From Deltaproteobacteria bacterium (lineage in GTDB: Bacteria > Desulfobacterota > Deferrimicrobia > Deferrimicrobiales > Deferrimicrobiaceae), in the NCBI GenBank assembly GCA_016218975.1, contig JACRCO010000053.1, forward strand, positions 15,523-79,522: a stretch of 64,000 nucleotides of DNA, in the 5' to 3' direction. Below, piece after piece: positions 6,524-44,675 of the stretch. Numbering within the stretch: the stretch's first letter is position 1; each line of letters opens with the position of its first letter. The notes below the pieces were generated by a model. That model did not search any database. It was not told the origin of the DNA and worked only from the letters and a program-made list of their open reading frames with translations. The position numbers and the translations under genes are program-made.

Positions 6524-7426
6524 CTACTCGACGATCGTGAACGCCTCGACCCGGTTGTTCCCACGGTCCGCGATGAAGACGTTGCCGATTTCGTTGACGC
6601 ACATGTGTGCGGGGTAGCGGAGAAAGCCGTCTTTCCATCCCATGCTCAAACGCCGTCCGCGCACTGCGCCGTCTTGCCCGAGGATAAGAATGCCGCCGCC
6701 GTTCTGGTCCACCAGGTAGATGTTGCCCCTCCCGTCCGCGGCGATCGAAACCGGGAAATACGCGTCCTCCTTCAGGCTGGCCGATAACGGCAAAACGGCC
6801 GCGGAATCTTTCGCCGCCTTGTACACTCTCCCCTGCACGCTGTCTACCAGGAGGATGTTCCCGCCCGAATCGACGGCAAGATCGGAGAAGAAACCGTACT
6901 CCTTCGGGAACGGGATCTGGCGCTGCATCTTGCCCGCGGGATCGAGCACCAGTATCCGGGCTGAAAACACGTCGAGAACGAAGAGGTTGTCGTTTTTATC
7001 GATCCGGAAGCTCCTCGGCACGACAGCGCCTTGGACATCGCCCGAAACGGCGATGTACCCCTGGAACTCGCCCGAGGGAGAAATGCGGGCGATCCTGCGC
7101 ACCTTCCCGTCGAGAACGAAGATCTCACCCCTGGAATTCGCCTCCGCCCGGATGGGATTGGGCAATTGGGGCAGAACGATTTCGGCTCCCGGGGTCCAGC
7201 TCCCTTCCGACATCGCGTACCGCAGGATCCGGCCGTTCCCGGTATCGGCTACAAGCAGGGATCCGCCCCTGCAGCCGACGCCTTCGGGAAGCTTGATCCC
7301 CGCTCCCTTGCCGTCCACGTAAACTGGAGCGTTCATCCTGAATTTGACGGCCTCCGCGGCATGGCCGTCGGCGCCCGCGGCAAGGAGCACCGCCGCGAAC
7401 AGGGCCGCTTTCGGTATATTCCGCAT
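6524..7426 (-). CDS. NHL-repeat protein, secreted
   Basis: ORF 6524..7690 trimmed to ATG 7426 (MRNIPKAALFAAVLLAAGADGHA signal peptide). Repeated NHL-like blades (GNIYLVDQNGGGILILG, GNVFIADRGNNRVEAF). Confidence 0.8.
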   Translation of the reverse strand: MRNIPKAALFAAVLLAAGADGHAAEAVKFRMNAPVYVDGKGAGIKLPEGVGCRGGSLLVADTGNGRILRYAMSEGSWTPGAEIVLPQLPNPIRAEANSRGEIFVLDGKVRRIARISPSGEFQGYIAVSGDVQGAVVPRSFRIDKNDNLFVLDVFSARILVLDPAGKMQRQIPFPKEYGFFSDLAVDSGGNILLVDSVQGRVYKAAKDSAAVLPLSASLKEDAYFPVSIAADGRGNIYLVDQNGGGILILGQDGAVRGRRLSMGWKDGFLRYPAHMCVNEIGNVFIADRGNNRVEAFTIVE

Positions 7427-7431
7427 CCTGG

Positions 7432-8703
7432 TCACCTCTTGTATTTCTCGTGGCACTGAACGCAAAGATCCATCTTTATGTCGTAATGCACGAACCGCTT
7501 GTGCCCGGAGCCGTGGTTGCTGTGGCAGCTCTCGCAATCCATGCCGAGATTCCTGTTCCGCTTGTCGACCACCTTTTCGCCGATGGGATGGCTTGAGTGC
7601 TTCTGCCAGTCGTGGCACGCGCCGCACACGTTGATCGTGCTCGCGTTGTCCATAAGGAAAACGGAATTGGATGAGTGCGGCCTGTGGCACTTGGTGCAGT
7701 TACCCTCCTGAACGGGCTTGTGCTTTGTGAGGGATTTCTCCTGCTTCTCGATGGTATCGCGGTGGCATTCGCCGCACAGGGCCAGTTGGGGGCCTTTAAG
7801 AAGTGCGCTTTCCTTCGAGGCGTGCGGGTTGTGGCAATTCCCGCATGAGTTCCTGTCAAGCACGGGCCAGTGCATCCGGTTCCTGCCGAACGTCTCGTTC
7901 ATCATGTTGTTGTGGCATCCCCGGCAAAGTTCGTACCCGGCCTTCCTGGTCTTCAGCGCATCGGGGGAAGCCGCATCCTGGTGGCACTGGCTGCACATTT
8001 TATTGACGACCGGCTGGTGCCCTTTCCCGAGGAACATCCCCCGGCTGCCGGACCCGTGCGGGTCGTGGCACGATGTGCACCGCGATTTCGCCACGGGATA
8101 TCCCATATGCTGCTTTCCGAAGGATGGGGTTTCCGTCCTGTGGCATTTGACGCATATGCCCGGGACGTCTTCCTTGAGCAATGCCCGGGCATTAGATGAC
8201 GCATGGGGGTTATGGCAGTTGAGGCATCCCTTCTCCACGGGACTGTGCTTGAATTTGTTCCCGGCCACCGCCTTCGCGACGCTTTCATGGCAGCCGAAGC
8301 ACAGCTCGTTGCCCGCCCGCAGAAGGTTGTTCCTGTTCGCGGCCGCATGGGGGTCATGGCATTTTACGCAATTCCCCTCGACCGCCGGCCTGTGGGCGCT
8401 CGGCGCCTTGTCCGGAACGATCCCGTCGTGGCAGGAAAAACAGATCTTCTTCACGTCGTCCGCAAGGAGCTTTCCATGGGTGGAAGTGTGCGGATTGTGG
8501 CAGTCGGAGCAATCTCCCTTCTTTACCGGCGTGTGGAGAAACGGGAGCTTAAGCTTGTCCTTGAAGGTTTCGTGGCAGGTCACGCAGACTTTACCTTTCG
8601 CCCCCGGCTTGAGGCGGAACTTGTCCTGGGAGTGCGACAGGGAGACCGCCCCCAGGGATACGATCGCAAGGAGAACCAGTGCGAATTTGGTTCGAAGCGT
8701 CAT
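7432..8703 (-). CDS. Multiheme cytochrome c, 16 CxxCH motifs
   Basis: ORF trimmed to ATG 8703 (MTLRTKFALVLLAIVSLGAVSLS signal peptide). I counted 16 CxxCH motifs with regular c7-like spacing. Confidence 0.9.
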   Translation of the reverse strand: MTLRTKFALVLLAIVSLGAVSLSHSQDKFRLKPGAKGKVCVTCHETFKDKLKLPFLHTPVKKGDCSDCHNPHTSTHGKLLADDVKKICFSCHDGIVPDKAPSAHRPAVEGNCVKCHDPHAAANRNNLLRAGNELCFGCHESVAKAVAGNKFKHSPVEKGCLNCHNPHASSNARALLKEDVPGICVKCHRTETPSFGKQHMGYPVAKSRCTSCHDPHGSGSRGMFLGKGHQPVVNKMCSQCHQDAASPDALKTRKAGYELCRGCHNNMMNETFGRNRMHWPVLDRNSCGNCHNPHASKESALLKGPQLALCGECHRDTIEKQEKSLTKHKPVQEGNCTKCHRPHSSNSVFLMDNASTINVCGACHDWQKHSSHPIGEKVVDKRNRNLGMDCESCHSNHGSGHKRFVHYDIKMDLCVQCHEKYKR

Positions 8704-8716
8704 GTCTTCTCCTCTG

Positions 8717-10702
8717 TCATCGCTTTTCCGCGATATGGCATTCGTCGCAGGACCGGCCGGCGAAAGGCGCGTGCACATTTTCCTTGAAGAACTTGGGGTC
8801 CTTCGAAGCGTGCGGATCGTGGCAACTGCGGCAGTCGATCGCCGCCGGGTCTATATTCAGATGCGCCTTGCCGAAGGACGCATCCTTCACATTGTGGCAC
8901 TCGCCGCACAGCGCCTGCACGGGCTGCGACAGGAGAGCCGCCTGGCCGGAGTAGTGAGAGGCATGGCACCGCAGGCAGTCGCGTACGGCCGGGGAGTGGC
9001 CCTTTTCCTTCTGCATCTTCTCCTTCAGATTCCTGTGGCAGGTAAGGCACAGATCGGGAGATTCCACGAGCAGAAGCTTCGAAAGCTTCGACTTGTGCGG
9101 GCTGTGGCATTTTGTGCACTCTCCGCCCGATACCGGCTTATGCCCGCTTTTCCCGGCTTTCAACCCGTCCTTCAGGTCCGAGTGGCACTCGAAGCATACC
9201 TTGTCCTGCTTCGCGACGATCATCCCCGCGATGTTCGACGCGTGAGGATCGTGGCAGGTCAGGCATTCCCCGCCCTTGAAGGGGTCGTGGACCGTGCCCC
9301 CGGCGACCTCTTTCATCAGGTCTCCGTGGCAGTTCGCACAGAGGGCGGATCCGGCCTTGCGCACCAGTTTCTTTTCCTCCGATCCGTGCGCGAAGTGGCA
9401 CGCTGTGCAGTTGCCTATCATTACCGGCCGGTGGATGTTTCGCTTGAGGAAGTTCGACTCCGAGTCGGAGTGGCACCCGTAACAGACCTTGTCGGTCCGG
9501 TCTTTGAGGATCGCCGGAAGATCCGACCCGTGCGAATCGTGGCAGGATGCGCAATCCCCCTTGGCGAACGGCTCGTGCCGTGTTTTCGCTTTCTCAGCAG
9601 TCCTGACCTTCGCATGGCAGGAATAGCAAAGTTCCCCTACCCCTGCGGAAAGAAGTCCCTTGTTCTTCGCTGCGTGGGGCTTATGGCAGGAAAGGCACCC
9701 CTTCCCTTTATCGACCGCGGCGTGGGGCCTCGAAACCGTTTTCCCCTTTTCGGCGTGGCATTCCACGCAGAGCCCGTTCCCTTTCCTGGCAAGGAGTTTC
9801 GGGTTTACGGAAGAATGGGGATCGTGGCAGGATGTGCACTCGCCCTCCTTGAAGGGATTGTGCAGCACCGTTCCGTCCGCCTTCAGCTTCGCCTCGTCAT
9901 GGCACTGGTAGCAGAGCTTGCTCCCCTTCTCCGTCGCCGCGAAGGGCTTTTCGGACGTCGGTGACGGATGGCATGCATCACAGCTTTTTTCGACGACGGG
10001 GTTGTGGGCGCTCGCTTTCATCAGCTTCGGCCGGGAAGAGGAGTGCGGGTCGTGGCAACCTGTGCAGGAGGCGGACTCCACGGGATAGTTCCCGTGCGCT
10101 TTCCTGAATCCCCCCTTTCCCGCGTCGTGGCAGGAAAGGCAAAGAGGCGTCTTCGCCTTCACGAGCAGGTCGTTCTCGCCGGAGCCGTGCGGATTGTGGC
10201 AGGCGCGGCACCCCTCCTTTTCGAGCACGGCATGCTTCACATTCTGCGTGTACGCCTCTTTCTTGTGGCACTGGAAGCAGGCTTCCGATCCTTCCGCTTT
10301 CAGCAGGTGGCTTCCCTGGGAGGCGTGCGGGTTGTGGCAGGAGGTGCATTTGCCGGTTTTCAACGCCGTGTGGACCTTGGGGCGGTTCAACCCGACCTTT
10401 TCCTTCGCGTGGCATGCGTAGCAGATCTCGTTCCCTTCCTTTTTGAGGAGGAGCTTGGGGACGATCCCGTGACGAAGATGGCAGTCCTCGCACTTCCCCT
10501 GCTTGACGACGGCGTGGACGTCCTTCATCGAGAGATACTTGTCCGCGAACTTCTTGTGGCAATCGAGACATCCCTTCCGCTCGAACTTCCGTTGCTGCGC
10601 CCACGAGGAACCCTGGTGGAAAAGTGCCGCAGCCCCTCCAAGGAGCAGGAAAATTCCAAGGATGGTCAAAATCCTTTTTCGAAAGGCTGTCCTCATACGC
10701 AC
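8717..10702 (-). CDS. Multiheme cytochrome c, 26 CxxCH motifs
   Basis: 661-aa ORF with a signal peptide (RILTILGIFLLLGGAAALF). I counted 26 CxxCH motifs. It sits 14 bp upstream of the 16-heme gene. Confidence 0.9.
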   Translation of the reverse strand: MRMRTAFRKRILTILGIFLLLGGAAALFHQGSSWAQQRKFERKGCLDCHKKFADKYLSMKDVHAVVKQGKCEDCHLRHGIVPKLLLKKEGNEICYACHAKEKVGLNRPKVHTALKTGKCTSCHNPHASQGSHLLKAEGSEACFQCHKKEAYTQNVKHAVLEKEGCRACHNPHGSGENDLLVKAKTPLCLSCHDAGKGGFRKAHGNYPVESASCTGCHDPHSSSRPKLMKASAHNPVVEKSCDACHPSPTSEKPFAATEKGSKLCYQCHDEAKLKADGTVLHNPFKEGECTSCHDPHSSVNPKLLARKGNGLCVECHAEKGKTVSRPHAAVDKGKGCLSCHKPHAAKNKGLLSAGVGELCYSCHAKVRTAEKAKTRHEPFAKGDCASCHDSHGSDLPAILKDRTDKVCYGCHSDSESNFLKRNIHRPVMIGNCTACHFAHGSEEKKLVRKAGSALCANCHGDLMKEVAGGTVHDPFKGGECLTCHDPHASNIAGMIVAKQDKVCFECHSDLKDGLKAGKSGHKPVSGGECTKCHSPHKSKLSKLLLVESPDLCLTCHRNLKEKMQKEKGHSPAVRDCLRCHASHYSGQAALLSQPVQALCGECHNVKDASFGKAHLNIDPAAIDCRSCHDPHASKDPKFFKENVHAPFAGRSCDECHIAEKR

Positions 10703-10723
10703 TCCCGGGTCGATGGCGTTGCG

Positions 10724-12415
10724 CTACCTGGCGAGGGGTTTCACGATCCTGTCGAGCTTGTCGCCGGTGGCATAAATCTTCACTTCCGATGCCTTCCTCA
10801 GCTTCTCTTCCCAATCCCGAAGCGTCCGTTGGCGTTTATCGAGGAACAATTTCTGCCGGATGCCGTCTTTAACCGATTCGTATTTCTGCGGCTGCGGGGG
10901 AAAAACTTCACGGACGTACAACACGTAAGCGGGTCCTTCCGCTTCCGAATAAATCCGGAAATCCCCGCCGGTCGCCCCCGAGACCGCCTTTCGCGCTCCT
11001 TCCGGCAATTCCGTCACGATCATCGTCCCGCCGAATCGAAGCAGGTTTTCCGCCTTGGCCGGATCCACCCTGCCGTCGGCGTTCTCTTTCGTCCAAATGA
11101 AATCCGCGCCCTTCCGCAGCTTTTCGACAGCGTCCTCCGCATCCGCCCTCTTGTGAAAGGCGATGCTGTCCATCCGCATCATCTCCGGAGTCGTGTATTC
11201 CGCGATATGACCCTTCAGGTACTCCCTGATTTCCGCTTCGTCCACCTTGATTTCCGGGTCGATCGCTTTCCTGACGAACGTCCCGAACACCAGTTCGTTC
11301 CTGTAGCCATCGACCCGGGTCTTAAAAAACTCCGCCCGGTCCAGTTTTTTCAGTCTCGCCTCCTTGAGCGCGACCCGCCTTGCGAGGATCTCGTCGAGGA
11401 CAACAGGTTTCCTTTTGTTTATTTTCTTTTTCTCCGCCGCCTTTTCCGCACCGTGAAAGAATTTCCGCTGAAGCGCCGTCGTAAGGTCGGCCACCGTGAC
11501 GGGCGCCTCTCCCTTCACCTTCGCCACGACGCGCTTGTCCTCGAGCAGTTTTTCGAACCCCGGCTGAATCGAGTCGTAATCGAGGCCATCGAGGATCTTA
11601 CCGTTCACCTTCACATATTTTTTCTTGAGCTCTTCCGAGTATTTGCCGAGAACGACGACCCTTTTTGCCTTCAAGGCTTCCATTCCGGCCTTCTCTTTCG
11701 CCGCCGGATCGTCAGGGTAACGTACCCCCTCGAACTTGAGCATCGAGTAATGGTTCCCCACCTTTATCAGAGGGCTTATTTCGCCGGCCTTCATGGAAGA
11801 AACGGCGGCCGCCACATCGGGAGACAACGATTCGAATTTCATGTACCTGCCTTCCAGGCTCCCTTTCGCCTCTCCGGCGTCGAGCATCCGTTTCGCGGCG
11901 GATTCGAAATCCCTTCCGGACTTCACCTCGGCTTCCAGCCGCTTTCCTGTCTCCTCTTTCTCCATGAGCACGGACTTGACCTTGACCTCCTTGACTGTTT
12001 CGCGGTAAAGCCTGTCGATTTCCTTCTTGTCCCCCTTCTTCACGTTTTTAACCCGTTCTCCGTACAACATTCCTCTCAACGACTCTTCCTCGTAAGCCTT
12101 TACCGCCGCCGTCACCTCCGTCAATGAGTCCAGGCCTATATTCCGCGCTTCCTGCAGGATGAGCTTCGCGTTTATTATCCGTTCCAGTATCGCCGACGGG
12201 CTGGAGTGCGCCTTCGCCGAATTGTCGGACACTCCTTCGTGAATGGATGCAAGCACGTTGTAGAATTCATGGAGAGTGACCGGCTCGCCGTTGACCGAGG
12301 CAAGGGCTGGTTTTCCGCCGATTTCAGGCAGCTTCGGGTCTGCGGCGCCCCCTTCGATCGCGGCGAATGCCAGGAAACACACCACGATCGTCAACAGGAA
12401 ACATATTTTTCTCAT
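10724..12415 (-). CDS. SurA-N-domain periplasmic chaperone-like protein (SurA/PpiD family)
   Basis: ORF trimmed to ATG 12415 (MRKICFLLTIVVCFLAFAAIEG signal peptide). Lys/Glu-rich chaperone-like sequence with SurA-N-like motifs. No clear parvulin signature seen. Confidence 0.65.
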   Translation of the reverse strand: MRKICFLLTIVVCFLAFAAIEGGAADPKLPEIGGKPALASVNGEPVTLHEFYNVLASIHEGVSDNSAKAHSSPSAILERIINAKLILQEARNIGLDSLTEVTAAVKAYEEESLRGMLYGERVKNVKKGDKKEIDRLYRETVKEVKVKSVLMEKEETGKRLEAEVKSGRDFESAAKRMLDAGEAKGSLEGRYMKFESLSPDVAAAVSSMKAGEISPLIKVGNHYSMLKFEGVRYPDDPAAKEKAGMEALKAKRVVVLGKYSEELKKKYVKVNGKILDGLDYDSIQPGFEKLLEDKRVVAKVKGEAPVTVADLTTALQRKFFHGAEKAAEKKKINKRKPVVLDEILARRVALKEARLKKLDRAEFFKTRVDGYRNELVFGTFVRKAIDPEIKVDEAEIREYLKGHIAEYTTPEMMRMDSIAFHKRADAEDAVEKLRKGADFIWTKENADGRVDPAKAENLLRFGGTMIVTELPEGARKAVSGATGGDFRIYSEAEGPAYVLYVREVFPPQPQKYESVKDGIRQKLFLDKRQRTLRDWEEKLRKASEVKIYATGDKLDRIVKPLAR

Positions 12416-12494
12416 GTCATTGCCTTCCGTGGGATACCCGGGATTGTCGACTGTGTGCATTTTAACAAAGAATGATTCTCGGTATTGAAATAAA

Positions 12495-12539
12495 TTCTTC
12501 GGAAAATAAATATTTCACCCGGATCAGCGACGCTCCGGG
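12495..12539 (-). terminator. Rho-independent terminator candidate after the lipoprotein gene
   Basis: Minus-sense CCCGGAGCGUCGCUGAUCCGGG hairpin (plus 12518..12539) followed by U-rich UGAAAUAUUUAUUUUCC. Confidence 0.4.
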
Positions 12540-12541
12540 CT

Positions 12542-13708
12542 TCAGAAAGTTTCCGCCGCATTCCCGTCCTCGTCCATCATCCTCTCGACCACGGCGCGCG
12601 TCATGCCGGATGCCAGCGCATATGCGGTATTGACTCTCCCCTGGTTGAAGAAGATCACCCGGTCGTCGCCGCGGTTGAAACTTATCGACGACCATACGAC
12701 CTGCCTTGTTTTCGTGTCGTATATGCGGACCGTAAAGTTAACCTTCGGATTCCCTCCCGGGCCGCTATAATCGTCGTACTCGTAAACGTTACCCGACATG
12801 ACCAGATCGACACCGAGCATTTCACGCAGCAGGTCCGCCTGGGGGATGGACAGGCCCCCTTCCATGATCGTCCTCGACATGAGCAATGCCTGCCTCACCA
12901 CACCTGGCTCCGAAACTTCGAAAGATCCATGCTCCGAAAGTCTTCTCACCAAATGCAGGGCCATGATGTCGCCTGCGTTTCTCCGTGTGCTGTCGTTCGC
13001 AAGGGGAAGGACGGCGATCGACTTTTTTTCTCCTTCGAATGCACGGTTCCCGAGTCCCCTGAAGATATCCTTCGGCCGATACTTGTCCATCTCCTCTTCA
13101 TGCTTTTCAAGGGCTAACGCGCCTTGCGGAACGCTTCGCGGATTTTTTCCCGCAAGCCGATCCGCAAGTGAATCGACGACTTCGTCCCTGACCTTGTTCC
13201 ACAGCGCCCATGGATCATTGATCATGCCGAGAAGAAGGAAGCCCGGAGCATCGTTTCCCGCCATCGCCACGCCTTCCATCCAGAGGACCGCCGGCATCCC
13301 TGCGGTGGAAACCAGCCTCGCCGTCAAGGCCATTTTCGGCGGCGCCGCCTCATCGTATTGGTCGAGCGAGACGAAAAGGACGGCTTTCGTCCCTGTCTCG
13401 GAAAGGAAATCCTTTCCAAGGGCTTCGGTCAGCCCGCCGGCGTACCGGACCCGGTGCCTCTCCATGAATTTTTCCATCGAATCGTCATCCAGGAGAAGGA
13501 AGCCTTTCGACCGCAATCCCTCCTTCAGGGATTTCTCGATCCCCTTGAGCGGAACGGACGTTCCCGACAGGTTTTCCATCGGCATTACCGCAATCCGGAA
13601 GTCGCCGGCGGGGGCTCCCGTTTTCACGGGAGAAGCGGCGCAACCCGAAAACGCAAGCAACCCGATGAATATGACGACGGGGTATTTACTTGCCGAAAAG
13701 TTTGTCAA
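12542..13708 (-). CDS. Two-domain lipoprotein, CsgG/LpoB/DUF799-superfamily-like, tandem internal duplication
   Basis: Signal peptide plus Cys (LLAFSGCAAS). Two copies of the module IAVMPMENLSGT / IAVLPLANDST ... VDLVMSGNVYEY ... TRQVVW. Confidence 0.7.
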   Translation of the reverse strand: MTNFSASKYPVVIFIGLLAFSGCAASPVKTGAPAGDFRIAVMPMENLSGTSVPLKGIEKSLKEGLRSKGFLLLDDDSMEKFMERHRVRYAGGLTEALGKDFLSETGTKAVLFVSLDQYDEAAPPKMALTARLVSTAGMPAVLWMEGVAMAGNDAPGFLLLGMINDPWALWNKVRDEVVDSLADRLAGKNPRSVPQGALALEKHEEEMDKYRPKDIFRGLGNRAFEGEKKSIAVLPLANDSTRRNAGDIMALHLVRRLSEHGSFEVSEPGVVRQALLMSRTIMEGGLSIPQADLLREMLGVDLVMSGNVYEYDDYSGPGGNPKVNFTVRIYDTKTRQVVWSSISFNRGDDRVIFFNQGRVNTAYALASGMTRAVVERMMDEDGNAAETF

Positions 13709-14267
13709 GCAGTTCTTCCACCGCCTTCTGCGTCACGAAATTCATCGGTTCTCCGCCCCCGCCGAAAAGGCGGTCCGCCGTCGTCACCCCCCCCTTGGTG
13801 GTCGCCGCCGTCCAGACCACCTTTCCCGTCTGCGCTTCCATCATCTGGAGGCTCACCGAGATGACGTTCGCACTTGTCGATCCGGACCTCACTTCGCCGT
13901 ATTCCGAGACCGTTCCGGTTATCACCACGTCCGCGTTCAGGTTCTTGGCGAACTTGACGATCTCCTCGGCGGTGGGCGTCGCCGGACGCTCCACATTGGC
14001 CCGGGAAATTCCGCGCGACACTTCCCCGGGAGGGATGACGTAGAGGCCGCCCGTCGCCTGGAGCATCGTCATGAAGACGTCGCGCACCCTGTCGGCCGCA
14101 AGCTGCTCCCTCGTAAGGTTCGTGAACGGCAGGACGGCCACGGCCTGGATGGATCCGAAATCCATGTTCGGATCCCGGAACACGTTATGCGACGTCCCGG
14201 CGCACCCCGTCGCGACGAGCAGAAACAGAAAGACCGCCCTCAGGCGCCGCATCGGCTTTTCTTTCAT
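13686..14267 (-). CDS. Lipoprotein, CsgG/LpoB/DUF799-superfamily-like
   Basis: MKEKPMRRLRAVFLFLLVATGCAGT lipoprotein signal. Hallmark AVAVLPFTNLT...ADVVITGTVSEY...TGKVVW. Confidence 0.7.
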   Translation of the reverse strand: MKEKPMRRLRAVFLFLLVATGCAGTSHNVFRDPNMDFGSIQAVAVLPFTNLTREQLAADRVRDVFMTMLQATGGLYVIPPGEVSRGISRANVERPATPTAEEIVKFAKNLNADVVITGTVSEYGEVRSGSTSANVISVSLQMMEAQTGKVVWTAATTKGGVTTADRLFGGGGEPMNFVTQKAVEELLDKLFGK

Positions 14268-14335
14268 GATCCGGGTCCTCCCCCCATTAATATTACACTG
14301 CCCGCCTCAGGCCGGCCCGCATTCATCATGCGGGT

Positions 14336-16525: not shown

Positions 16526-16529
16526 AACG

Positions 16530-17966: not shown

Positions 17967-18035
17967 GATCGTCTTCCCTTTCCTCGTACGGGTAATTCGA
18001 ATGCCGATGCGATGCTCCAGGCCATTCTATCGAAT

Positions 18036-31537: not shown

Positions 31538-31552
31538 CTTCGTACCCGCTTT

Positions 31553-33924: not shown

Positions 33925-33935
33925 CCTCCGCCGAC

Positions 33936-35339: not shown

Positions 35340-35368
35340 GCCCGTGGCGATCCTCCTTCCGGGCGCGT

Positions 35369-36379: not shown

Positions 36380-36383
36380 CCGC

Positions 36384-37301: not shown

Positions 37302-37416
37302 GAACGTCGCGCCGCCAAGCCGGCGGGCGAGCCCCCGCGAGGGACACCCCGTGAGGCGTGCGTAGCCCGGCACTGTAACGGAAAATATTTTCGGAGCGGA
37401 AGACATCGGCTGTCGC

Positions 37417-38328
37417 TCAGATACCGGCGATCGAAAACACCGAGATCCGATTCCCCCCTTCTTCAAGGACGTACAGGTTCTCGTGCGGATCGACGGCAAG
37501 GTCCGCCGGGGAGAACAGGCCCTCTCCGCTCATCGAGAAGATCACGTTCCCGAGCGGATCGAGCGCCTTTATCCCGCGACCCCCCTCCTCAACGACCCAT
37601 ATCCGGCTTCGCGCGTCTACCGCGAGGGCCTTGATCCTGAGCGGCTCCCTCGAGCGCAGGGTTGATGTTCCGATCGTCCGAAGCTGTTTCCCGCGGTCGT
37701 CGTACACCCGGATCCCCCCGAACCCCGGGTCCGCCACGTATATCTTTCCCGTACGGTCGACCCATATGTCCGCGGGCTCGCCGACGTCTGCGATGGAGAA
37801 ACGCAGCTTCTCGTCAGCCCCGAAGGCAAGGACCTGCCGGTTCCCCCGGTCGGCGACGTAAAGATCGCCGTTCCAGTCCGCGAAAAGCGCGGCCGGCTGC
37901 ACCGGCGACGTTCTTCTGTATTGCTTGAGATCTATCTCGCGGTACGCCTCGGCGGCAACGGCGTCGTACCCGTCGAGCGCCTTCACGATTTCGCTTTCCC
38001 TCCCGGCGATGAAAAGCTTCCCTCCGCGCGTTGCGGCCACAGCCCTCGGATATCCCAGCTCGCCGCCTTTCCCCAGGACCTTGACGATCTGTCCTTTGCG
38101 GTCCAGAACGGAAACCTGGTGCAGCAGCGGATTGGCGACCGAAAGGTATCCCCTTTGCTCGTCGTACCAGAGGCCTGTCGGGGAAAGTAAGGCGAGGTCC
38201 GGACCGGAAGGAACGATCGTGACGGACCTTTCCAGGCACAGCGTCCGGGCGGGTGCCGGCGCAAGGATCATGAGTGCGGCCGTCAGCACGACCGCGAAAA
38301 GATCCTTTCGTGAAAATACATGGCGCAT
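37417..38328 (-). CDS. NHL-repeat protein, secreted
   Basis: Signal peptide MRHVFSRKDLFAVVLTAALMILAPAPA. Repeats GDLYVADRGNRQVLAF, GKIYVADPGFGGIRVY, ENLYVLEEGGNRISVF. Confidence 0.8.
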   Translation of the reverse strand: MRHVFSRKDLFAVVLTAALMILAPAPARTLCLERSVTIVPSGPDLALLSPTGLWYDEQRGYLSVANPLLHQVSVLDRKGQIVKVLGKGGELGYPRAVAATRGGKLFIAGRESEIVKALDGYDAVAAEAYREIDLKQYRRTSPVQPAALFADWNGDLYVADRGNRQVLAFGADEKLRFSIADVGEPADIWVDRTGKIYVADPGFGGIRVYDDRGKQLRTIGTSTLRSREPLRIKALAVDARSRIWVVEEGGRGIKALDPLGNVIFSMSGEGLFSPADLAVDPHENLYVLEEGGNRISVFSIAGI

Positions 38329-38346
38329 CCCTGCCGGTTCCCTTCC

Positions 38347-40515
38347 CTATTCCTTTGCCGCGGGGTCGACCCGGCCGGGCTGCGCCGGTTTCAGGAAGAA
38401 TGGTCTTTTATCCGAGCCGTCGCTGTTCATGACGAACAGGCGCTCGTCGTTCTCATCCAGCGAGACGTAAACGATGGTCCCTTCCTCCGGAAGAAGCGCG
38501 GGGAATATCGCTCCCGTCTCCGTCAGCGGCGCCGGCTGGCCCCCCTCCGCCTTCACGGCGAATACGTTGGGAATTCCGTTATGCAAGGCCGTGAATATGA
38601 CGTGCTCGTCAGTCGCATCGAAAAACGGCCGGTGGGTATATTCCGGCTGGAACACCTGGAACTGGCTGTCCACCTCGCTGGAATGAAGTTTTTTCGTTTC
38701 CGTTCCGTCGGCGTTCGATGCGATGAGCTCGCGAACGACCTTCTTCCCGTCGTAAACTGTAAAGGTGTATCCGATCTTTTTCCCGGCCGCGGACCAGAAC
38801 GGATGGGAAGCCGTGGACGGAGGCCTGTCCTCGCCCTTGTTGCTCTCCGCGAACGATGTCACGCGAACCCTGCCGGTCCCGTCTCCCTTCATCGTCCAGA
38901 CATCGACCCCGTCCGTGAATGCGATCTTCTTCCCGTCGTTGGACCACTTCGGCTGAAGGTAAAGCTCGGCCGCGACCTCAGGGGCCGAAGGATAGCGCAG
39001 ATCGCTCAACCGGAACGCATTGTCCGACGCCGTCAGCATGTACAGGCCCGGCGTCTCGCCGTATCTCGGTATGGCGCTTACAAGGACCTTGTCGTCCTGG
39101 ATGGAAGCATCGGCGTCGAGATAGGACCTGAGATCGCCATTGTTGGGAAAATCGATCGGGCCCTTCTCCGAGAAGGCGTGCAGCCCCCTTGCCGAAAACA
39201 CAAGGAGCCCCTCGCTGCGCGGAAGCCAGAATATTCGGGTGTCGCCTTCAAGCGCGAAACCGGGATAAGAAGCCGATTCCTCTCCCGCGATACCCGCGAC
39301 CTTCAAGAATTCGACCCCTCCCTCGTTGGTGAAGAAGGCCACCTTCGTCGCGTCCGGAGAAGGCACTGGCATCCATGCGGAAGGCCTGCTCTTCGCGAGC
39401 GGTTTTACGCTTCCCGTAATCCCGTCAAGTAGGTAGAGCTCGGCGGAGCCGCTCCTCTCCGAAACCCCGGCGAGGACGATGTCTTTTCCGCCGGGGGAAA
39501 GCGAAAAATCGGACAGGTGCAGTTCGGGGGGCGAAATCCTCCTCTCGATGCCGGATGCCATATCAAGCCGCCAGAGCGCGTTGACGCCCACCTGCCTGTT
39601 GCCCGACTTCCTGGTCTCATGCGGCGCCCGCGGTTTTTCCCTGTCATCGTCCACCTTCGCGCCTGCGGTGTTGTCGGCTGCGACGGCGTTATCCGCAGGC
39701 ACGATCTCTATATCCTGCCCGATGTAAAAAATCCCCTTGCCGTCGACATCCCATGCGATACGTCGCCCCGCGAGCCTCGGGGCCTTGAGGACCGTGACCT
39801 CCTTGCCGGACAGATCCATGGTGCGGATCTCGAACTCGCCGGGGCTGGTGGGGAACGGATAGGCTATGAGCCCCGCCTTGTTCGAATAGGCCGGTGTCCC
39901 GATGTACTTGTTCAGAAGCGGCTTGCTCTCCATATCGGACAGGTCGATCTCCCAGATTCCGACTCCGTACGTCTTGCCGGCCTCGTAATAGACCTTTCGG
40001 CTGTCCGGGCTAAAAAAAACCGATCGGACGCTTATCTTTTCGGTCACCGCCTCGACCCTCGATCCGTCCGAGGTGCCGATCCACAGGTCCCGTACGTTTT
40101 GCTGTTCCCCGGGGGCCGTGAAAGCGAAAAGCTTCCCGTCCGGCGACTCGATCGGGATCCCTGCGTTGGGAGGGATACCGGGAATCCGTTCTTCCGGCCT
40201 GCCTCCGTCGATGCCGATCCGTAAAACCTCCTCGTACCCCTTGCGCCTGGCGGAGAACAGGATGGTTTTTCCGTCCGGCGCCCAGCGGAAATGAGAAACC
40301 CCGCGAGTCGTAAGCCGCCGTTTTCCGGAACCGTCGGCGTTCATCACCCAAAGGTCCGCAGGCGTATGCAATGTGGAGGAAAGAAAGGCTATCTTGCTTC
40401 CGTCGGGAGAGTGGACAGGGCTTCTGCCTCCGTTGGGTTCGGCGCTGTTGGCCGGGTTGAACGCAGACATGACAATTATAAAGATAACGGTTAACGACAG
40501 CAGATACTTTTTCAT
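38347..40515 (-). CDS. TolB-like periplasmic protein with multiple PD40/WD40-like beta-propeller repeats
   Basis: Signal peptide MKKYLLSLTVIFIIVMSAFNPANSA. Many SPDG.KIAF-type PD40 repeats (SPDGSKIAFLS, APDGKTILFSA, SPDGKLFAFTA, SPDSRKVYY, SPDATKVAFF, SNDGKKIAFTD). Confidence 0.8.
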   Translation of the reverse strand: MKKYLLSLTVIFIIVMSAFNPANSAEPNGGRSPVHSPDGSKIAFLSSTLHTPADLWVMNADGSGKRRLTTRGVSHFRWAPDGKTILFSARRKGYEEVLRIGIDGGRPEERIPGIPPNAGIPIESPDGKLFAFTAPGEQQNVRDLWIGTSDGSRVEAVTEKISVRSVFFSPDSRKVYYEAGKTYGVGIWEIDLSDMESKPLLNKYIGTPAYSNKAGLIAYPFPTSPGEFEIRTMDLSGKEVTVLKAPRLAGRRIAWDVDGKGIFYIGQDIEIVPADNAVAADNTAGAKVDDDREKPRAPHETRKSGNRQVGVNALWRLDMASGIERRISPPELHLSDFSLSPGGKDIVLAGVSERSGSAELYLLDGITGSVKPLAKSRPSAWMPVPSPDATKVAFFTNEGGVEFLKVAGIAGEESASYPGFALEGDTRIFWLPRSEGLLVFSARGLHAFSEKGPIDFPNNGDLRSYLDADASIQDDKVLVSAIPRYGETPGLYMLTASDNAFRLSDLRYPSAPEVAAELYLQPKWSNDGKKIAFTDGVDVWTMKGDGTGRVRVTSFAESNKGEDRPPSTASHPFWSAAGKKIGYTFTVYDGKKVVRELIASNADGTETKKLHSSEVDSQFQVFQPEYTHRPFFDATDEHVIFTALHNGIPNVFAVKAEGGQPAPLTETGAIFPALLPEEGTIVYVSLDENDERLFVMNSDGSDKRPFFLKPAQPGRVDPAAKE

Positions 40516-40583
40516 ACTACTTCACCACCCTTACGGCCCATTTCTATCGCATGTGATGGGAAACGGAAATCCACCGGGAGAGA

Positions 40584-40625
40584 ATGGAATTCTTCCATGT
40601 TTCCGACATGATGGAAATGGAAATA
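40584..40625. promoter_or_regulatory. Cluster of ATGGAA/TTCCAT inverted half-sites and GGAAAT direct repeats upstream of the TolB-like gene
   Basis: ATGGAAttcTTCCATgTTTCCgacatgATGGAAATGGAAAT. The same half-sites occur at 54347..54393. Confidence 0.3.
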
Positions 40626-40711
40626 TAACAATTTGAACCGTAGTTTGCAAGGCATAATTAAGAACCGTTATCAAACGATTCCCTGTCCTTTTTTCCCCAA
40701 AGTAACTATTA

Positions 40712-42052
40712 TCAAAATCCCTTGACGTAAGCTTTTGTCCCGCCCTTCTGATGGCACTTTCCGCACCCGAATGCAGGGTTGTCCCCGATCGAGACCGCGC
40801 CCGTGAAATCCTGCTGCCCGGCGGGGAGAAACGAGTGGGAGTTCGTGTCCCACCGGGTCATGTTTTCGTAGTTCGAAGCGTGCGCCTTGTGGCATGTGAG
40901 GCACATGATACGGTCCGTAGCCGCAAGCGTTGCCGGATCGGAGGCGGAGGCGACGTTCGCCCTGACGGAGAAGTCGGCATCCCCCTTAACCAAAGGGTAT
41001 TTCCAGTCATAACCAACGGGGTTCGGGTTGTTCCCCTGTGAATTCGTAACGGCCGCATTGTAGGTATCGATGCCGTACTTGCTTCCGGTCGATCTATCCA
41101 TAGTCACGTTGGTCGGGTGCCGTATCCATGCATCGCCCGACCGGGTCTTGTCGTTGTCGGCGTTCCTGTTCTCGCCGTTTCCTCCGTGGAAGTCGCCATG
41201 ACAGACGGCGCAGAACGAGGAGAAGCCGCCCCGGTAGACGTTCTTGTTCGTGTCCGACTCGGCCGTGTTCGGGTACAGTTTCGCGCCTTCGAGCGGGTTA
41301 CCGTCCTTGCGAGTATTCAAATACGTGGTCTCGTTCGGGCCTCCCCGTATGTCGCCGCGCGAGTTGGAAAGGATCGGCTCGTATCCCGGCGCGGTCGTCC
41401 CTTCGTTACCCCCATAGCTCTCGACGCCTTTCGCCGCCGTCTCGCTCCCCGTGTGAACGATCCCGTTCACCTTGCGGCGCAACTGTCTCCATGCCGCCAC
41501 GTTTTCACCGAACCGGTTGTGGGGATCGTGGCACGAGGCGCAGTCCCAGTCGTTCGTCGAAAATCCTCCTCCGGGAGACGCCGTCAACACCGGGTCCGAA
41601 GGCATGACCATCGACTGAACCCCCCTGCTCTTCCCCGGGTTGTGTCCCTTCTTCGGATCGTTGAAGCTCAAATGGAAATCCCCGCCCGGCAACGCGTAAT
41701 TCGACGGGATGTTCCCGGCGCTGCTCATCACCGCCGGGGCCTTGAATGCGGTGCTCGCGGGATAGAGATGGCATTGCAGGCATATGTCGGTGACCGTTGG
41801 CTGCTTGAGAAGTCTCGCGTACGGCCCGGGATTCCCCGTGGTCCCGGCGATGATCGGAGCGCCGTCCTCGCTGTTGTGTATCGTATGGCAGTCGTAGCAA
41901 ACCAGCCCGTCGTACGAGTGGTAAAGCCGCGTGTTCACGCTCCCGGTTATATAGTCGATAAAAGCGTATGCCGGAGGCGCGGCGCCGAAGCAAAGCGCGG
42001 CCATCGAACAAGCGAGGACGAAGCCGGCGGCGGCTCTGGTTCTTTTATTCAT
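40712..42052 (-). CDS. Hexaheme c-type cytochrome, divergent OmcS-related family B
   Basis: ORF trimmed to ATG 42052 (MNKRTRAAAGFVLACSMAALCFGAAPPAYA). YHSYDGLVCYDCHTIHNS, LPGGDF...KGHNPGK, CASCHDPHNRFG, CAVCHGDFHG, CLTCHKAHASNYENMTRWDTN (compare OmcS CLSCHRAHASGFDSMTRFN), C-terminal GCGKCHQKGG. Six CxxCH motifs. Confidence 0.8.
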   Translation of the reverse strand: MNKRTRAAAGFVLACSMAALCFGAAPPAYAFIDYITGSVNTRLYHSYDGLVCYDCHTIHNSEDGAPIIAGTTGNPGPYARLLKQPTVTDICLQCHLYPASTAFKAPAVMSSAGNIPSNYALPGGDFHLSFNDPKKGHNPGKSRGVQSMVMPSDPVLTASPGGGFSTNDWDCASCHDPHNRFGENVAAWRQLRRKVNGIVHTGSETAAKGVESYGGNEGTTAPGYEPILSNSRGDIRGGPNETTYLNTRKDGNPLEGAKLYPNTAESDTNKNVYRGGFSSFCAVCHGDFHGGNGENRNADNDKTRSGDAWIRHPTNVTMDRSTGSKYGIDTYNAAVTNSQGNNPNPVGYDWKYPLVKGDADFSVRANVASASDPATLAATDRIMCLTCHKAHASNYENMTRWDTNSHSFLPAGQQDFTGAVSIGDNPAFGCGKCHQKGGTKAYVKGF

Positions 42053-42138
42053 GATCACCCCCCGGAGGTGGTGAAGCCCTGCGGGCGTGGAGTCACGCCC
42101 GCAGGGCGGCATGAAACATTCTCAAATGGACAGGCGAT

Positions 42139-43536
42139 TTAGAACCCCTTCACGTACGCCTTCGTCCCGCCCTTCTGGTGGCACTTTCCGCAACCGAAGG
42201 TCGGGTTGTCGCCGACTGATGCTCCGGCAACCCAGGCGGTTCCGTTCCAGGTCTGGCCTTCCACATCCGCTCCCCCGTTCGGAAGGAACGCGTGGCCGTT
42301 GGTATCCCATCGTGTCATGTTCTCGAAACTGGATGCGTGCGCCTTGTGGCAGGTGAGGCACGAAAGCCGATCGTTGCCAGACAGCGTGGCGGGATCGGCG
42401 GCCGAAGCCGAAGTGCTCAGCACGGCGAAGTCCGCGTCCGCCTTGATGAGCGGATACCGGAAGTCGTAGCCGACCGGGTTAGGGTTGTTTGCCTGGGCGT
42501 TGGTGACGGTGGCCTTATAAGTGGTGATGCCGTATTTCCTGCTTGTCGGCGTCATATCCATTTTCAGGTTGGTCGGATGCTTCATCCAGACACCGGCGGT
42601 TTGGGTCTTGTCTGTCCCGCCTTCGGTCTGCTCGGTGCCGTGGAAATCCCCGTGGCATGCGGAGCAGAAGGAGGAGAAGCCGCCCTGGTAGACGTTCTTG
42701 TTCGTGTCGCTGTAATCGACAAAGAGGTCCGCGCCCTGGAGATCCTTGCCGTCCTGGCGCTTGTTGACGTAGGTCGTTCCCTGGATGTCGCCGCGGGAGT
42801 TCGACTTGATAGGCTCGTAAGCGGTGTTCTGGGTCTCGCCGCCCGCCGATGTCTCCACGCCGAACGATGTTACGTTGCCGGTAACCACGACGCCGTTCAC
42901 CTTCCGCTTGATCTGCCGCCATGCCGTGTAGCTGCCGCTGAACCGGGAGTGCATCCCGTGGCAGGAGTGGCAGGACCACTCGCCGTCCGTGATGGTGCCG
43001 CCCGGAGGCGCGTTCCCGAGAACCGTGTCAGCCGCCATCAGTTTGGAGGTGGGGCTTGCGGATCCCTTGGTATACGCCGGGTTGTGCCCTTTCTTCGGGT
43101 CCAAATTGGACTGATAGAAGTCGCCCGCAGGCATGGAGATGCCGGCCGGAATGGCGCCGGTGAGCGTCATGACGATCGGGGCGGTCCAGCCTGTGTTCTC
43201 CACGCCCACGAGATCGGCGGATGCGGAAGTGTTGTACCCCTGCTTGTGGCAGGAAAGGCACATATCGGTCCAGTCGCCCTTTTTCAGCAATTCGCGGTAA
43301 GACCCGCCCGCGCCGGGATTCCAGTCCGTGGCGCCGCCGTCCTGTAGCTTGTTACCGGATATGCGGGCGCCGCCATCGCTGTTGTGCAAGGTGTGGCAGT
43401 CCGTGCAGACGAGGCCGTCATAGGAGTGATACTGTGCCGTATTGGGACCGGCGCCCGTCGTCTGGCTGGGCACCGCCGCAATCGCCGGCGCGGCCGTCAG
43501 GGCCGCAATCGCGATCGATAGCAAGAATTTTTTCAT
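42139..43536 (-). CDS. Hexaheme c-type cytochrome, family B paralog
   Basis: ATG 43536 with GGAGGA RBS. MKKFLLSIAIAALTAAPAIAA signal peptide. Same motif set as the 40712..42052 gene. The 867-aa track ORF is a read-through extension. Confidence 0.85.
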   Translation of the reverse strand: MKKFLLSIAIAALTAAPAIAAVPSQTTGAGPNTAQYHSYDGLVCTDCHTLHNSDGGARISGNKLQDGGATDWNPGAGGSYRELLKKGDWTDMCLSCHKQGYNTSASADLVGVENTGWTAPIVMTLTGAIPAGISMPAGDFYQSNLDPKKGHNPAYTKGSASPTSKLMAADTVLGNAPPGGTITDGEWSCHSCHGMHSRFSGSYTAWRQIKRKVNGVVVTGNVTSFGVETSAGGETQNTAYEPIKSNSRGDIQGTTYVNKRQDGKDLQGADLFVDYSDTNKNVYQGGFSSFCSACHGDFHGTEQTEGGTDKTQTAGVWMKHPTNLKMDMTPTSRKYGITTYKATVTNAQANNPNPVGYDFRYPLIKADADFAVLSTSASAADPATLSGNDRLSCLTCHKAHASSFENMTRWDTNGHAFLPNGGADVEGQTWNGTAWVAGASVGDNPTFGCGKCHQKGGTKAYVKGF

Positions 43537-43556
43537 TGCATCCTCCGAAGTTTTCT

Positions 43557-43640
43557 CTGGCGGCCCGGCCGTCCTTCCATCGAAGGATCCGTGGGCTTTG
43601 CGTCCCCCGATTACTCGAGGTTTGCCTTTTTCAGAGGATT
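43557..43640 (-). promoter_or_regulatory. GEMM-I (c-di-GMP/cGAMP class) riboswitch candidate in the leader of the family-B hexaheme gene
   Basis: Minus-sense GGCAAACC-UCGA[GUAA]UCGGGG-GACGCAAAGCC aligns base-for-base with the Vc2-type GEMM-I P1 and core. P2 hairpin UCCUUC-GAUG-GAAGGA covaries with the 19418..19500 copy. The P1 overlaps the stop codon of the upstream NHL gene. Confidence 0.7.
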
Positions 43641-44675
43641 GTTGGGTGTTGACTGCGAAGCGATCCGTCGTTCCTGCGAATTTTCCGTGCACGCCGTTTT
43701 CGTTTCCTGCACCACCTCCTTCTCCTTGAGAAATCGAACCTTGAACACCTGCACACGCTTGAGCGTGTTCTCCAGTACGTAGATACGGTCCCTTCCGTCC
43801 GAGGCGATCCGGGAGGGCATGTAGAACTGGCCGTACCCCTCCCCGATCTTTCCGAACTCCTCGATGAACTCCCCCTCCCGGTCGAAGCAGGAGACCTTGT
43901 TGGTGACCGTGCTGACTACGAAGATATGGCCCGCATCGTCGGCGGCGATGCCGATGGGACGGTCGAGCTGGCCGTAGAGAACGCCGGGCGATCCGAAACG
44001 CTTGAATGTTTTTCCCCTGGGGTCGTAGATCACGACGGAATAGGGGCGCATGTCCGTAAAGAGAAACCGGCCGTTCCGATCGACGGCCATCCCGTAAATG
44101 GTGTTCGGCGCCCCCTCGCCGGAGATGGGGATCTCCTCGTGCGCCACGCCGTCGGGGTCCACCTTGACCACCCCCCCCCGCGTCTTGAGCACGTAGATTC
44201 CGCCGCTCCCCCCGTTGGCGATGGCCATTGGGCGGACGGCGCTTCCGGGCGCGTCTACGATCCCGGGGAGAAGAAGCGCGTCCAGGGGGTTCCCGCGGAA
44301 ATCGAGGATGCTGATCTTCGGGCTGTTCACGTGGCCGAGAAACATCCTTCCCTCGGCGTCCACCGCGACCATCCTCGCCGACCCTTCCTTCTCGCCGGGG
44401 TCGATCGCCTGCACGAACATGCCGTTCCGGTCGTATATAAGGATCTTCCGGATGGCGGCGTCCGCGATGTAGAGTTCGCCGGTTTTCCTGTCGACGAAGA
44501 TGTCCATCGGCTCCCGGAGCCTGTCGGAGCGCCCGCCTGCGTACTCGATCGCATAGAGGAACTCGACGCTCAGGAGGCCGCGATCCGTTCCCGCGGCCGG
44601 GGAGGGCGTTGCAGGCCATGGAATCATGAGGATCGCAAGGATGAGCAGAGCGGGAATTTTCAATCTCGACGGCAT
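43611..44675 (-). CDS. NHL-repeat protein, secreted
   Basis: Probable start ATG 44675 (MPSRLKIPALLILAILMIPWPATPSPAAG). NHL-like repeats (GELYIADAAIRKILIYD, GRFLFTDMRPYSVVIYD, GHIFVVSTVTNKVSCFD, DRIYVLENTLKRVQVF). Confidence 0.8.
   Translation of the reverse strand: MPSRLKIPALLILAILMIPWPATPSPAAGTDRGLLSVEFLYAIEYAGGRSDRLREPMDIFVDRKTGELYIADAAIRKILIYDRNGMFVQAIDPGEKEGSARMVAVDAEGRMFLGHVNSPKISILDFRGNPLDALLLPGIVDAPGSAVRPMAIANGGSGGIYVLKTRGGVVKVDPDGVAHEEIPISGEGAPNTIYGMAVDRNGRFLFTDMRPYSVVIYDPRGKTFKRFGSPGVLYGQLDRPIGIAADDAGHIFVVSTVTNKVSCFDREGEFIEEFGKIGEGYGQFYMPSRIASDGRDRIYVLENTLKRVQVFKVRFLKEKEVVQETKTACTENSQERRIASQSTPNNPLKKANLE

Follow-up and report, generated by a model that had tools for sequence, protein, structure and literature searches.

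Probable accessory roles for secreted NHL, YVTN and PD40 beta-propeller proteins in two OmcS-type cytochrome gene clusters of a deltaproteobacterial genome

The cytochrome OmcS assembles into conductive 'nanowire' filaments. In the field it is still an open question how such filaments are exported, how their growth begins and ends, and what anchors them (bioRxiv 10.1101/2025.10.22.684050). Here we describe seven secreted beta-propeller proteins encoded among multiheme cytochrome genes at positions 6524-44675 of a 64,000-nucleotide stretch of contig JACRCO010000053.1, from the metagenome-assembled genome (MAG) of a Deltaproteobacteria bacterium; we refer to the whole of this stretch as the window. 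We believe that these propellers probably have a dedicated accessory role, without redox function, in two gene clusters, cluster A (6524-20589) and cluster B/C (27748-44675), that make, export and mount OmcS-family cytochromes. Among the closest described systems is the osc (omcS companion) operon of Geobacter sulfurreducens, for which roles in folding (OscH), secretion (OscE/F/G) and nanowire morphology (OscD) have been proposed, as summarised in PMC13194489 (citing Shen et al. 2025). That summary of the osc operon assigns no role to NHL proteins. In Geobacter an NHL repeat gene, GSU2505, neighbours omcS (PMC9070056) and appears in a list of genes linked to anode growth; when gsu1771 is mutated, GSU2505, omcS and omcT drop almost equally on graphite, with log2 changes of -4.97, -4.99 and -5.03 (PMC10599522).

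Propellers accompany other extracellular cytochromes as well. In Desulfuromonadia, OmcE clusters are said 'always' to hold two beta-propeller lipoproteins and a large beta-barrel alongside the filament cytochrome and two multiheme cytochromes, and the same preprint favours a porin-like mounting model while calling secretion and assembly unanswered (bioRxiv 10.1101/2025.10.22.684050). Compared by description, the parts list resembles ours, but OmcE is a tetraheme unrelated to OmcS, and its propellers are lipoproteins whereas the NHL proteins of the window are not. Other reports place NHL genes next to multiheme cytochrome genes in D. ferrophilus (PMC9769857), in the Uet cluster of Ca. Tenderia (bioRxiv 10.1101/2022.05.06.490989) and in Gallionella (10.1101/2023.01.26.525709). 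The Uet clusters of Ca. Tenderia electrophaga and Gallionella combine two NHL propellers (UetH, UetI) with a peptidyl-prolyl isomerase (PPIase; UetB), a barrel (UetC) and multiheme cytochromes in conserved order, but serve electron uptake or iron oxidation, with undecaheme and triheme cytochromes, a cupredoxin and no reported OmcS-type hexaheme. In D. ferrophilus (DFE_0448-0451 and DFE_0461-0465; PMC9769857), NHL genes lie inside clusters for outer-surface multiheme cytochromes; these cytochromes belong to other families, and no barrel, lipoprotein or PPIase set is described with them. The association of propellers with extracellular cytochromes is thus already known, and cluster A is a further member of the osc type. 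We found no literature description of cluster B/C, of a strict pairing between NHL and OmcS subfamilies, or of loci reduced to such a pair, the osc operon entering this comparison through its summary in PMC13194489.

The window has ~60% G+C, and the propeller region in it holds ~28 genes, of which all but a few lie on the minus strand. Ten of these genes encode multiheme cytochromes. Another seven, each of them a minus-strand gene, encode propellers: five secreted, six-bladed NHL-type proteins (N1 to N5), a YVTN lipoprotein and a PD40 double propeller. For one of the NHL proteins the nearest named relative is in a Candidatus Deferrimicrobium MAG (65% identity). The order of cluster A is N2, riboswitch, OmcS, YVTN lipoprotein, barrel, two lipoproteins, SurA-like PPIase, 26-heme cytochrome, 16-heme cytochrome and N1, with a divergent hexaheme gene beyond N2:

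20818-22086, plus strand: second OmcS-subfamily-A hexaheme (six CXXCH motifs), divergent from N2 and 47% identical to the product of 18127-19395
19600-20589, minus strand: N2, an NHL propeller directly upstream of the OmcS orthologue, in the position of GSU2505 in Geobacter
19412-19495, minus strand: aptamer of the GEMM-I clan, c-di-GMP-I-GGC type (RF03167, 60.8 bits; gathering score 59), between N2 and OmcS
18127-19395, minus strand: OmcS orthologue, a subfamily-A hexaheme (six CXXCH motifs) matching the OmcS filament subunit (PDB 6EF8) over its full length with an E-value of 4e-108
16530-17966, minus strand: YVTN/YncE-type propeller lipoprotein of 478 residues, with an N-terminal domain of ~180 residues
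14336-16528, minus strand: putative outer-membrane barrel 1, ~730 residues, ending in ...HVGF
13686-14267, minus strand: LpoB/GNA1162-like lipoprotein, in an order conserved in related loci
12542-13708, minus strand: two-domain GNA1162/CsgG-like lipoprotein, likewise in conserved order
10724-12415, minus strand: SurA-like PPIase, OscH-like (Pfam Rotamase_2 81 bits, SurA_N_3 30 bits)
8717-10702, minus strand: 26-heme cytochrome, by CXXCH count
7432-8703, minus strand: 16-heme cytochrome, by CXXCH count
6524-7426, minus strand: N1, an NHL propeller 5 bp after the 16-heme gene

Cluster A is an osc-type cluster, as judged by sequence for its OmcS orthologue and by order, size and domain content for its other parts. 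Against the osc operon as summarised in PMC13194489, it offers an OmcS orthologue, OmcS-like paralogues, a propeller of ~475 residues, a channel-like set, a PPIase and a neighbouring NHL gene. The channel-like OscE/F/G would correspond to the barrel and two lipoproteins, OscH to the SurA-like PPIase, and OscD, given as 473 aligned residues (PMC13194489), to the 478-residue YVTN lipoprotein in its position, the last comparison being one of place and size. The two systems differ in that ours comes from an uncultured MAG, in which only OmcS was matched by sequence and the other Geobacter proteins by description. Barrel 1 has no Pfam or NCBIfam match, and it is kept after the YVTN gene in those related loci that reach far enough. 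The cluster A lipoproteins score 36 bits with Pfam LpoB and 31 and 25 bits with GNA1162-like families, and the 26-heme and 16-heme cytochromes, matching Paired_CXXCH_1 with 485 bits, recur as a pair in related loci.

All six hexahemes of the window are, by sequence, OmcS homologues, and pairwise comparison divides them into three subfamilies: A (18127 and 20818), B (35369) and C (40712, 42139 and 49149). Each begins with an N-terminal CxxCHxxH that aligns with OmcS residues 9-16. The second histidine of this motif, His16, we take to be the ligand of the neighbouring subunit's heme in the OmcS filament. The third subfamily-C gene stands outside the two clusters in a porin-cytochrome conduit (49149-54116, minus strand), where the hexaheme stands in line with an MtrA-like decaheme and a porin of MtrB/PioB type (Pfam 436 bits), and no NHL gene accompanies them. 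In cluster B/C the order is N5, riboswitch, two OmcS-like genes, PD40, N4, N3, subfamily-B hexaheme, 9-heme cytochrome, barrel, two lipoproteins and 42-heme cytochrome:

43611-44675, minus strand: N5, an NHL propeller upstream of OmcS-subfamily-C genes, an arrangement also seen in loci L033, L040 and L041
43556-43636, minus strand: GEMM-I riboswitch aptamer (Rfam RF01051, 62.2 bits), between N5 and the gene at 42139-43536
42139-43536, minus strand: OmcS-subfamily-C hexaheme, first of a tandem pair (E-value 2.5e-10 to 6EF8)
40712-42112, minus strand: OmcS-subfamily-C hexaheme, second of the pair (E-value 6e-21 to 6EF8)
38347-40515, minus strand: PD40 double propeller (Pfam PD40 57 bits), carrying a Sec signal but neither lipobox nor catalytic domain
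37417-38328, minus strand: N4, an NHL propeller 18 bp after the PD40 gene
36384-37304, minus strand: N3, an NHL propeller 4 bp before the subfamily-B hexaheme
35369-36379, minus strand: distant OmcS-family hexaheme, subfamily B, 336 residues with six CXXCH motifs (E-value 2e-6 to 6EF8)
33936-35339, minus strand: 9-heme cytochrome
32167-33978, minus strand: barrel 2
31553-32167 and 30920-31537, minus strand: two LpoB/CsgG-like lipoproteins
27748-30897, minus strand: 42-heme cytochrome

The strongest evidence for a link between propellers and cytochromes comes from gene order in other genomes. We fetched 49 related loci with N2-family or N3-family NHL anchors; the N2-family alignment gave 32 loci from species-representative genomes, whose six-frame open reading frames (ORFs) were scanned with profiles built from the window's own proteins, and the N3 side was covered by three context look-ups and a metagenome scan. 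In 45 of the 49 an OmcS-family gene lies directly downstream of the NHL anchor on the same strand (including L016, a frameshifted locus that was read by eye), in three it lies directly upstream, and one locus ends 280 nucleotides after the NHL gene, so that an OmcS-family hexaheme adjoins the NHL gene in 48/48 informative loci. These loci come from Thermodesulfobacteriota, Nitrospirota, Acidobacteriota, Schekmanbacteria and unbinned metagenomes, the Thermodesulfobacteriota in the N2-anchored set being Desulfobacterales, Desulfobulbaceae, Syntrophales and Deferrimicrobium. When each adjacent pair was classed by best match to the window proteins, N2-type genes preceded subfamily A in 26/26 cases, N3-type genes subfamily B in 11/11 and N5-type genes subfamily C in 4/5; N1-type and N4-type genes never directly preceded an OmcS-type gene. 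A comparison of paralogue distances, intended as a mirror between N2/N3/N5 and OmcS A/B/C, gave bit-score patterns without a clean match.

The clusters as wholes recur too. The common order of N2 loci is NHL, one or two OmcS-type genes, YVTN, a barrel of ~735 residues, LpoB-like lipoprotein, two-domain lipoprotein, PPIase, 26-heme, 16-heme and NHL, which cluster A matches exactly; in a Desulfobacterales-type variant (L009, L011, L013, L018, L020, L024, L029 and L032) the PPIase/26-heme/16-heme/NHL block is inverted upstream of the first NHL gene. An N1-type gene follows the 16-heme gene also in L009, L013, L018, L024, L029 and L032, and the YVTN gene follows OmcS in 27/32 N2-anchored loci, the other five being pair-only loci and cut contigs. 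N3 loci read (N5-type, OmcS-like), PD40, (N4-type), N3-type, subfamily-B hexaheme, 9-heme, a barrel of ~600 residues, two lipoproteins of ~200 residues and a 36- to 42-heme cytochrome. The cluster B/C order recurs in seven independent loci (L033, L035, L037, L039, L040, L041 and L044), one of them in a MAG named Anaeromyxobacter sp., and Nitrospirota MAGs are among its carriers; the N4-type gene sits between PD40 and N3 in L035, L037 and L039-L041 and is absent in L033. The interleaving of propeller and cytochrome genes noted in the original prediction is more than chance: propellers account for 7 of the ~28 genes at 6524-44675, and dozens of unrelated assemblies repeat the gene order.

Five loci (L004, L006, L023, L026 and L028) hold the NHL-OmcS pair alone, with ~10 kb on each side free of barrel, YVTN and PPIase genes, and two of these, L026 and L028, share Nitrospirota MAGs with the full clusters L022 and L014, respectively. 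This distribution marks the NHL-OmcS pair as the most persistent unit, and the barrel, lipoproteins, PPIase and YVTN protein seem to be held in common among NHL-OmcS pairs. At L001 (DATDQD010000064.1), an 8-kb contig assigned to a Bacteroidota MAG carries an osc-type cluster whose NHL protein shares 67% identity with N2; the assignment probably reflects a binning error, not a transfer.

Among the NHL proteins, N1, N3, N4 and N5 match Pfam NHL (PF01436; gathering cutoff 20) with 54, 56, 50 and 37 bits, N5 also matching DUF5128 with 39 bits; N2 falls just under the cutoff at 19.2 bits, and is a full-length paralogue of N5 (26% identity over 328 residues, E-value 2e-21). The AlphaFold2 model of N2 (mean predicted local distance difference test score, pLDDT, 90.6; predicted TM-score 0.86) has as its best 23 matches among solved structures nothing but NHL domains (TRIM71, TRIM2, TRIM3, Thin, Lin41, Brat and Mei-P26). 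For the TRIM71, TRIM2, TRIM3 and Brat group, Foldseek gives E-values of 6e-17 to 1e-12 and TM-scores of 0.75-0.79 on the target, at 14-20% identity. As modelled, N2 is a canonical six-bladed NHL propeller, nearer to the ligand-binding TRIM-NHL domains than to enzymes, and the other four, as full-length paralogues of N2, N3 or N5, share the six-bladed fold. Pairwise identity among the five is 22-27%, which makes them old and separately maintained. The original prediction counted six NHL proteins, one too many: a profile of the five, run against all six-frame ORFs of the window, returned no sixth, the next match being the YVTN protein at 16.9 bits. The N2 family numbers 451 homologues and has no precomputed Pfam domain, and many such NHL genes are annotated merely as hypothetical.

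Nor do the propellers look like electron carriers. The CXXCH count is zero in all seven, so that they lack the signature of c-type cytochromes, and the earlier suggestion of a redox partner finds no support in conserved residues either. Among 115 N2-family sequences there is no conserved histidine and a single invariant cysteine, C124; in the N3 family (83 sequences) H215 and H245 are invariant and C279 is 94% conserved, with no other conserved histidine; to see ligands in these residues would be pure conjecture. Most of the conserved NHL positions belong to the structural D..G repeat motif, and the five paralogues have in common no three-histidine or acidic metal site, and no conserved catalytic metal site. 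All seven propellers begin with a positively charged and then hydrophobic N-terminus typical of Sec export, as judged by eye from the translations, and the YVTN protein has a lipobox, so the expectation that they are not cytoplasmic holds. Neither lipobox nor membrane anchor is present in the NHL proteins, and no anchoring, kinase or transmembrane domain was found in them.

The remaining two propellers were named largely correctly in the original prediction. The YVTN protein, called there a propeller lipoprotein, scores 110 bits with TIGR02276 (cutoff 27.85) over four repeats and 60 bits with Pfam YNCE, and its lipobox cysteine is kept in 19/20 homologues. For the protein at 38347-40515, described as TolB-like with PD40 repeats, the repeats stand on the Pfam match and TolB itself does not: TIGR02800 gives 113 bits against a cutoff of 343, and the neighbours are cytochrome and NHL genes rather than tol-pal. 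Its AlphaFold2 model (pLDDT 85) has two propellers, ~30-272 and 305-712, joined by a disordered linker (276-301), and the fold matches are tandem-propeller proteins and tricorn. It is one of ~68 proteins that form a tight orthogroup (50-78% identity), below which similarity falls to generic PD40 repeats. Several members lie on contigs equal in length to contigs with N3 homologues, and these are probably the same contigs.

The spacing of these genes varies. Four junctions are short (16-heme/N1 5 bp, N3/hexaheme 4 bp, PD40/N4 18 bp and YVTN/barrel 1 bp), as the original prediction of gaps often under 20 bp would have it, but other propeller-cytochrome junctions run from 74 to 204 bp: N2/OmcS 204 bp and N5/OmcS-like 74 bp, both with a riboswitch, OmcS/YVTN 160 bp and OmcS-like/PD40 196 bp. 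Both aptamers lie just upstream of the GGAGGA ribosome-binding site of a cytochrome gene, the first ending 16 nucleotides before the OmcS ATG and the second overlapping the last 26 nucleotides of the N5 ORF and ending 19 nucleotides before the ATG of 42139-43536. Classed by Rfam match, they fall in the GEMM-I clan, with cyclic di-GMP (c-di-GMP) or cyclic GMP-AMP (cGAMP) as the candidate ligand. The N2-OmcS position is kept in 7/9 related osc-type loci scanned and the position after N5 in 1/7 cluster-B loci (L041), and the loci with a GEMM-I aptamer between NHL and OmcS-type gene are L001, L003, L006, L009, L010, L014, L030 and L041. Placed between the two genes, such an aptamer makes the cytochrome switchable independently of the NHL protein. 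The idea that propellers and cytochromes are co-transcribed keeps its footing in the shared strand and tight arrays, but a riboswitch leader parts two NHL genes from their cytochrome, and strict co-regulation is not implied. A promoter and terminator scan of 6300-22300 found no more sites than in shuffled sequence, and is silent on operon boundaries.

Overall, the notion of accessory or scaffold proteins raised by the original prediction has been strengthened: the hexahemes are all OmcS homologues, NHL genes adjoin them across phyla, the propellers carry signal sequences, and cluster A matches the osc cluster as summarised in PMC13194489. Domain identities, secretion signals, gene order and subfamily pairing are what we observe; from them we infer binding and a chaperone or adaptor mechanism. 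The likeliest role of the propellers is to help the cytochromes to fold, to be exported, to polymerise or to be anchored, each NHL protein serving one subunit type: N2 would serve OmcS subfamily A, N3 subfamily B, N5 subfamily C, and N1 the 16-heme cytochrome. For example, consider an OmcS monomer newly exported by Sec. The cognate NHL protein would bind it, either as an escort that stops polymerisation in the periplasm and passes the monomer on to the barrel or, at the filament base, as a low-copy adaptor. The outer-membrane platforms that shape or hold the assembly would be the YVTN lipoprotein and, in cluster B, the PD40 double propeller. A single barrel, lipoprotein and PPIase set could serve more than one NHL-OmcS pair. 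In mechanism only, this recalls chaperone-usher pili and curli (CsgG/E/F, CsgB-CsgA), where the gene for a polymerising subunit lies beside an accessory gene and an outer-membrane channel works with lipoprotein helpers; the NHL proteins have no homology to PapD-type chaperones or CsgB/C/E, however, and the CsgG matches here are marginal. The closest solved structures, TRIM71, TRIM2, TRIM3 and Brat, have six-bladed NHL propellers that bind macromolecular ligands on one face, but these are eukaryotic, cytoplasmic and RNA-binding, with only the fold in common. A sharper version, which we hold tentatively and regard as possible but doubtful, makes the NHL proteins subunit-specific polymerisation controllers, one per OmcS subfamily, that hold the monomer and deliver it to a shared exporter, and makes cluster B/C a second, uncharacterised filament or conduit system in several lineages. 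Here the NHL protein would perhaps shield the heme that awaits the inter-subunit histidine, in a cytochrome counterpart of chaperone-usher assembly.

The main rival to an accessory role in filament assembly holds that the propellers are permanent structural subunits, stabilisers or plugs of outer-membrane porin-cytochrome conduits. It draws on the NHL genes DFE_0451 and DFE_0463 beside outer-membrane cytochrome genes in D. ferrophilus (PMC9769857), on the stabilising or structuring role suggested for the Uet cluster, where NHL genes accompany a porin, a PPIase and cytochromes (bioRxiv 10.1101/2022.05.06.490989), on the large barrel and lipoproteins present in both clusters A and B/C, and on the distance of N1 and N4 from any OmcS-type gene. 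We nonetheless consider it unlikely, given that five loci keep the NHL-OmcS pair without a barrel within 10 kb, that the MtrAB-type conduit at 49149-54116 uses an OmcS-like outer cytochrome without an NHL gene, and that the NHL proteins have neither lipobox nor membrane anchor. That the NHL proteins are instead periplasmic enzymes (cf. PAL, virginiamycin B lyase and SMP-30), modifying cytochromes or processing a small molecule such as a shuttle, we judge quite improbable. The scores for SGL and Vgb_lyase are at or below the curated cutoffs for all five, placing them outside the NHL-fold enzyme families, the best structural matches are non-enzymatic TRIM-NHL domains, and the N2 family lacks a conserved histidine, the conserved positions being mostly those of the D..G repeat with no shared three-histidine or acidic metal site; the weak, sub-threshold Pfam matches to SGL, Vgb_lyase and strictosidine-synthase-like families, the appearance of Vgb lyase, PAL and lactonase at ranks 24-36 of the fold search, and the two invariant histidines and near-invariant cysteine of the N3 family, with the one invariant cysteine of N2, are what speak for it.

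A role at the cell surface in adhesion to, or sensing of, minerals or partner cells, with the cytochromes merely as neighbours, could be argued from the PknD sensor domain at rank 47 of the fold matches and from the large adhesin-like protein at 1339-6423, but the propellers have no anchoring, kinase or transmembrane domain and a strict pairing of NHL protein with cytochrome subfamily is not what a generic adhesin would lead one to expect, so that we find this very improbable. Finally, the five NHL proteins are paralogues, and a chance or lineage-specific expansion with no functional link to the cytochromes might be proposed. The synteny refutes it, and it retains almost no credence: gene order is kept across phyla, in every informative locus, and paralogues so divergent have long been maintained separately.

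At the same time, several points weigh against the accessory-protein reading itself. N1 and N4 are not beside an OmcS-type gene, and a scheme of one NHL protein per filament subunit therefore misses two of the five. Binding between NHL protein and cytochrome is deduced indirectly, from the sequences, and as cluster A already has a PPIase chaperone, a second chaperone is not obviously needed. The equivalences of N2 with GSU2505 and of the YVTN protein with OscD are drawn by position and size, not by sequence. Subfamily B and C hexahemes, OmcS-like by the comparisons above, may or may not polymerise, and barrels 1 and 2 are not demonstrably homologous (BLAST E-value 0.18; hhalign probability 48%, E-value 2e-4). 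The intervening riboswitches, moreover, mean that NHL protein and cytochrome are probably not made in a fixed ratio, which counts against a stoichiometric escort in particular and suits an adaptor present in few copies better.

The rule of one NHL subfamily per OmcS subfamily across phyla points to a concrete, testable partner for each filament subunit, and the pair-only loci suggest that the minimal unit is the NHL-OmcS pair rather than the full osc cluster. Cluster B/C, with its PD40 protein and 42-heme cytochrome, can serve for comparison, as a system with other parts in place of the PPIase and YVTN lipoprotein, and NHL and PD40 genes could mark filament-type cytochromes in metagenomes.

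Some smaller observations concern the same genes and their neighbours. The four small lipoproteins of clusters A and B/C (12542-14267 and 30920-32167) are mutually homologous (E-values 1e-16 to 1e-20), with weak LpoB, GNA1162 and CsgG matches; two CsgG matches are marginal (E-values 4e-5 and 0.0095), and the resemblance, if real, would tie the export set to curli-type channels. The end of the N5 ORF (43611-43715), its last ~35 codons, extends beyond the propeller, and its final 26 nucleotides coincide with the aptamer's 5' half; what is annotated as a C-terminal tail may not be real protein but read-through into the following gene's leader. In L014 a second GEMM-I aptamer lies upstream of the NHL gene. 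Another cyclic-dinucleotide link is a REC-PilZ protein, with a c-di-GMP-binding domain, at 22283-22975 (plus strand), beside the divergent OmcS-like gene at 20818-22086. The clusters are flanked by three paralogous modules on the minus strand (22991-27706, 45371-49137 and 54425-58182), each with one or more periplasmic binding proteins of phosphonate type together with a HAMP histidine kinase and a sigma54 response regulator, and such a module also flanks cluster B in L035. In Geobacter a sigma54 regulator and kinase, GSU2506/2507, adjoin GSU2505 (PMC10599522), with a window counterpart at 22991-25830. Beside cluster A on its other flank, at 1339-6423 (plus strand), lies the gene for a secreted protein of 1694 residues that may be an adhesin or surface protein; its domains are of the beta-helix, Big_13, MBG and PKD types.

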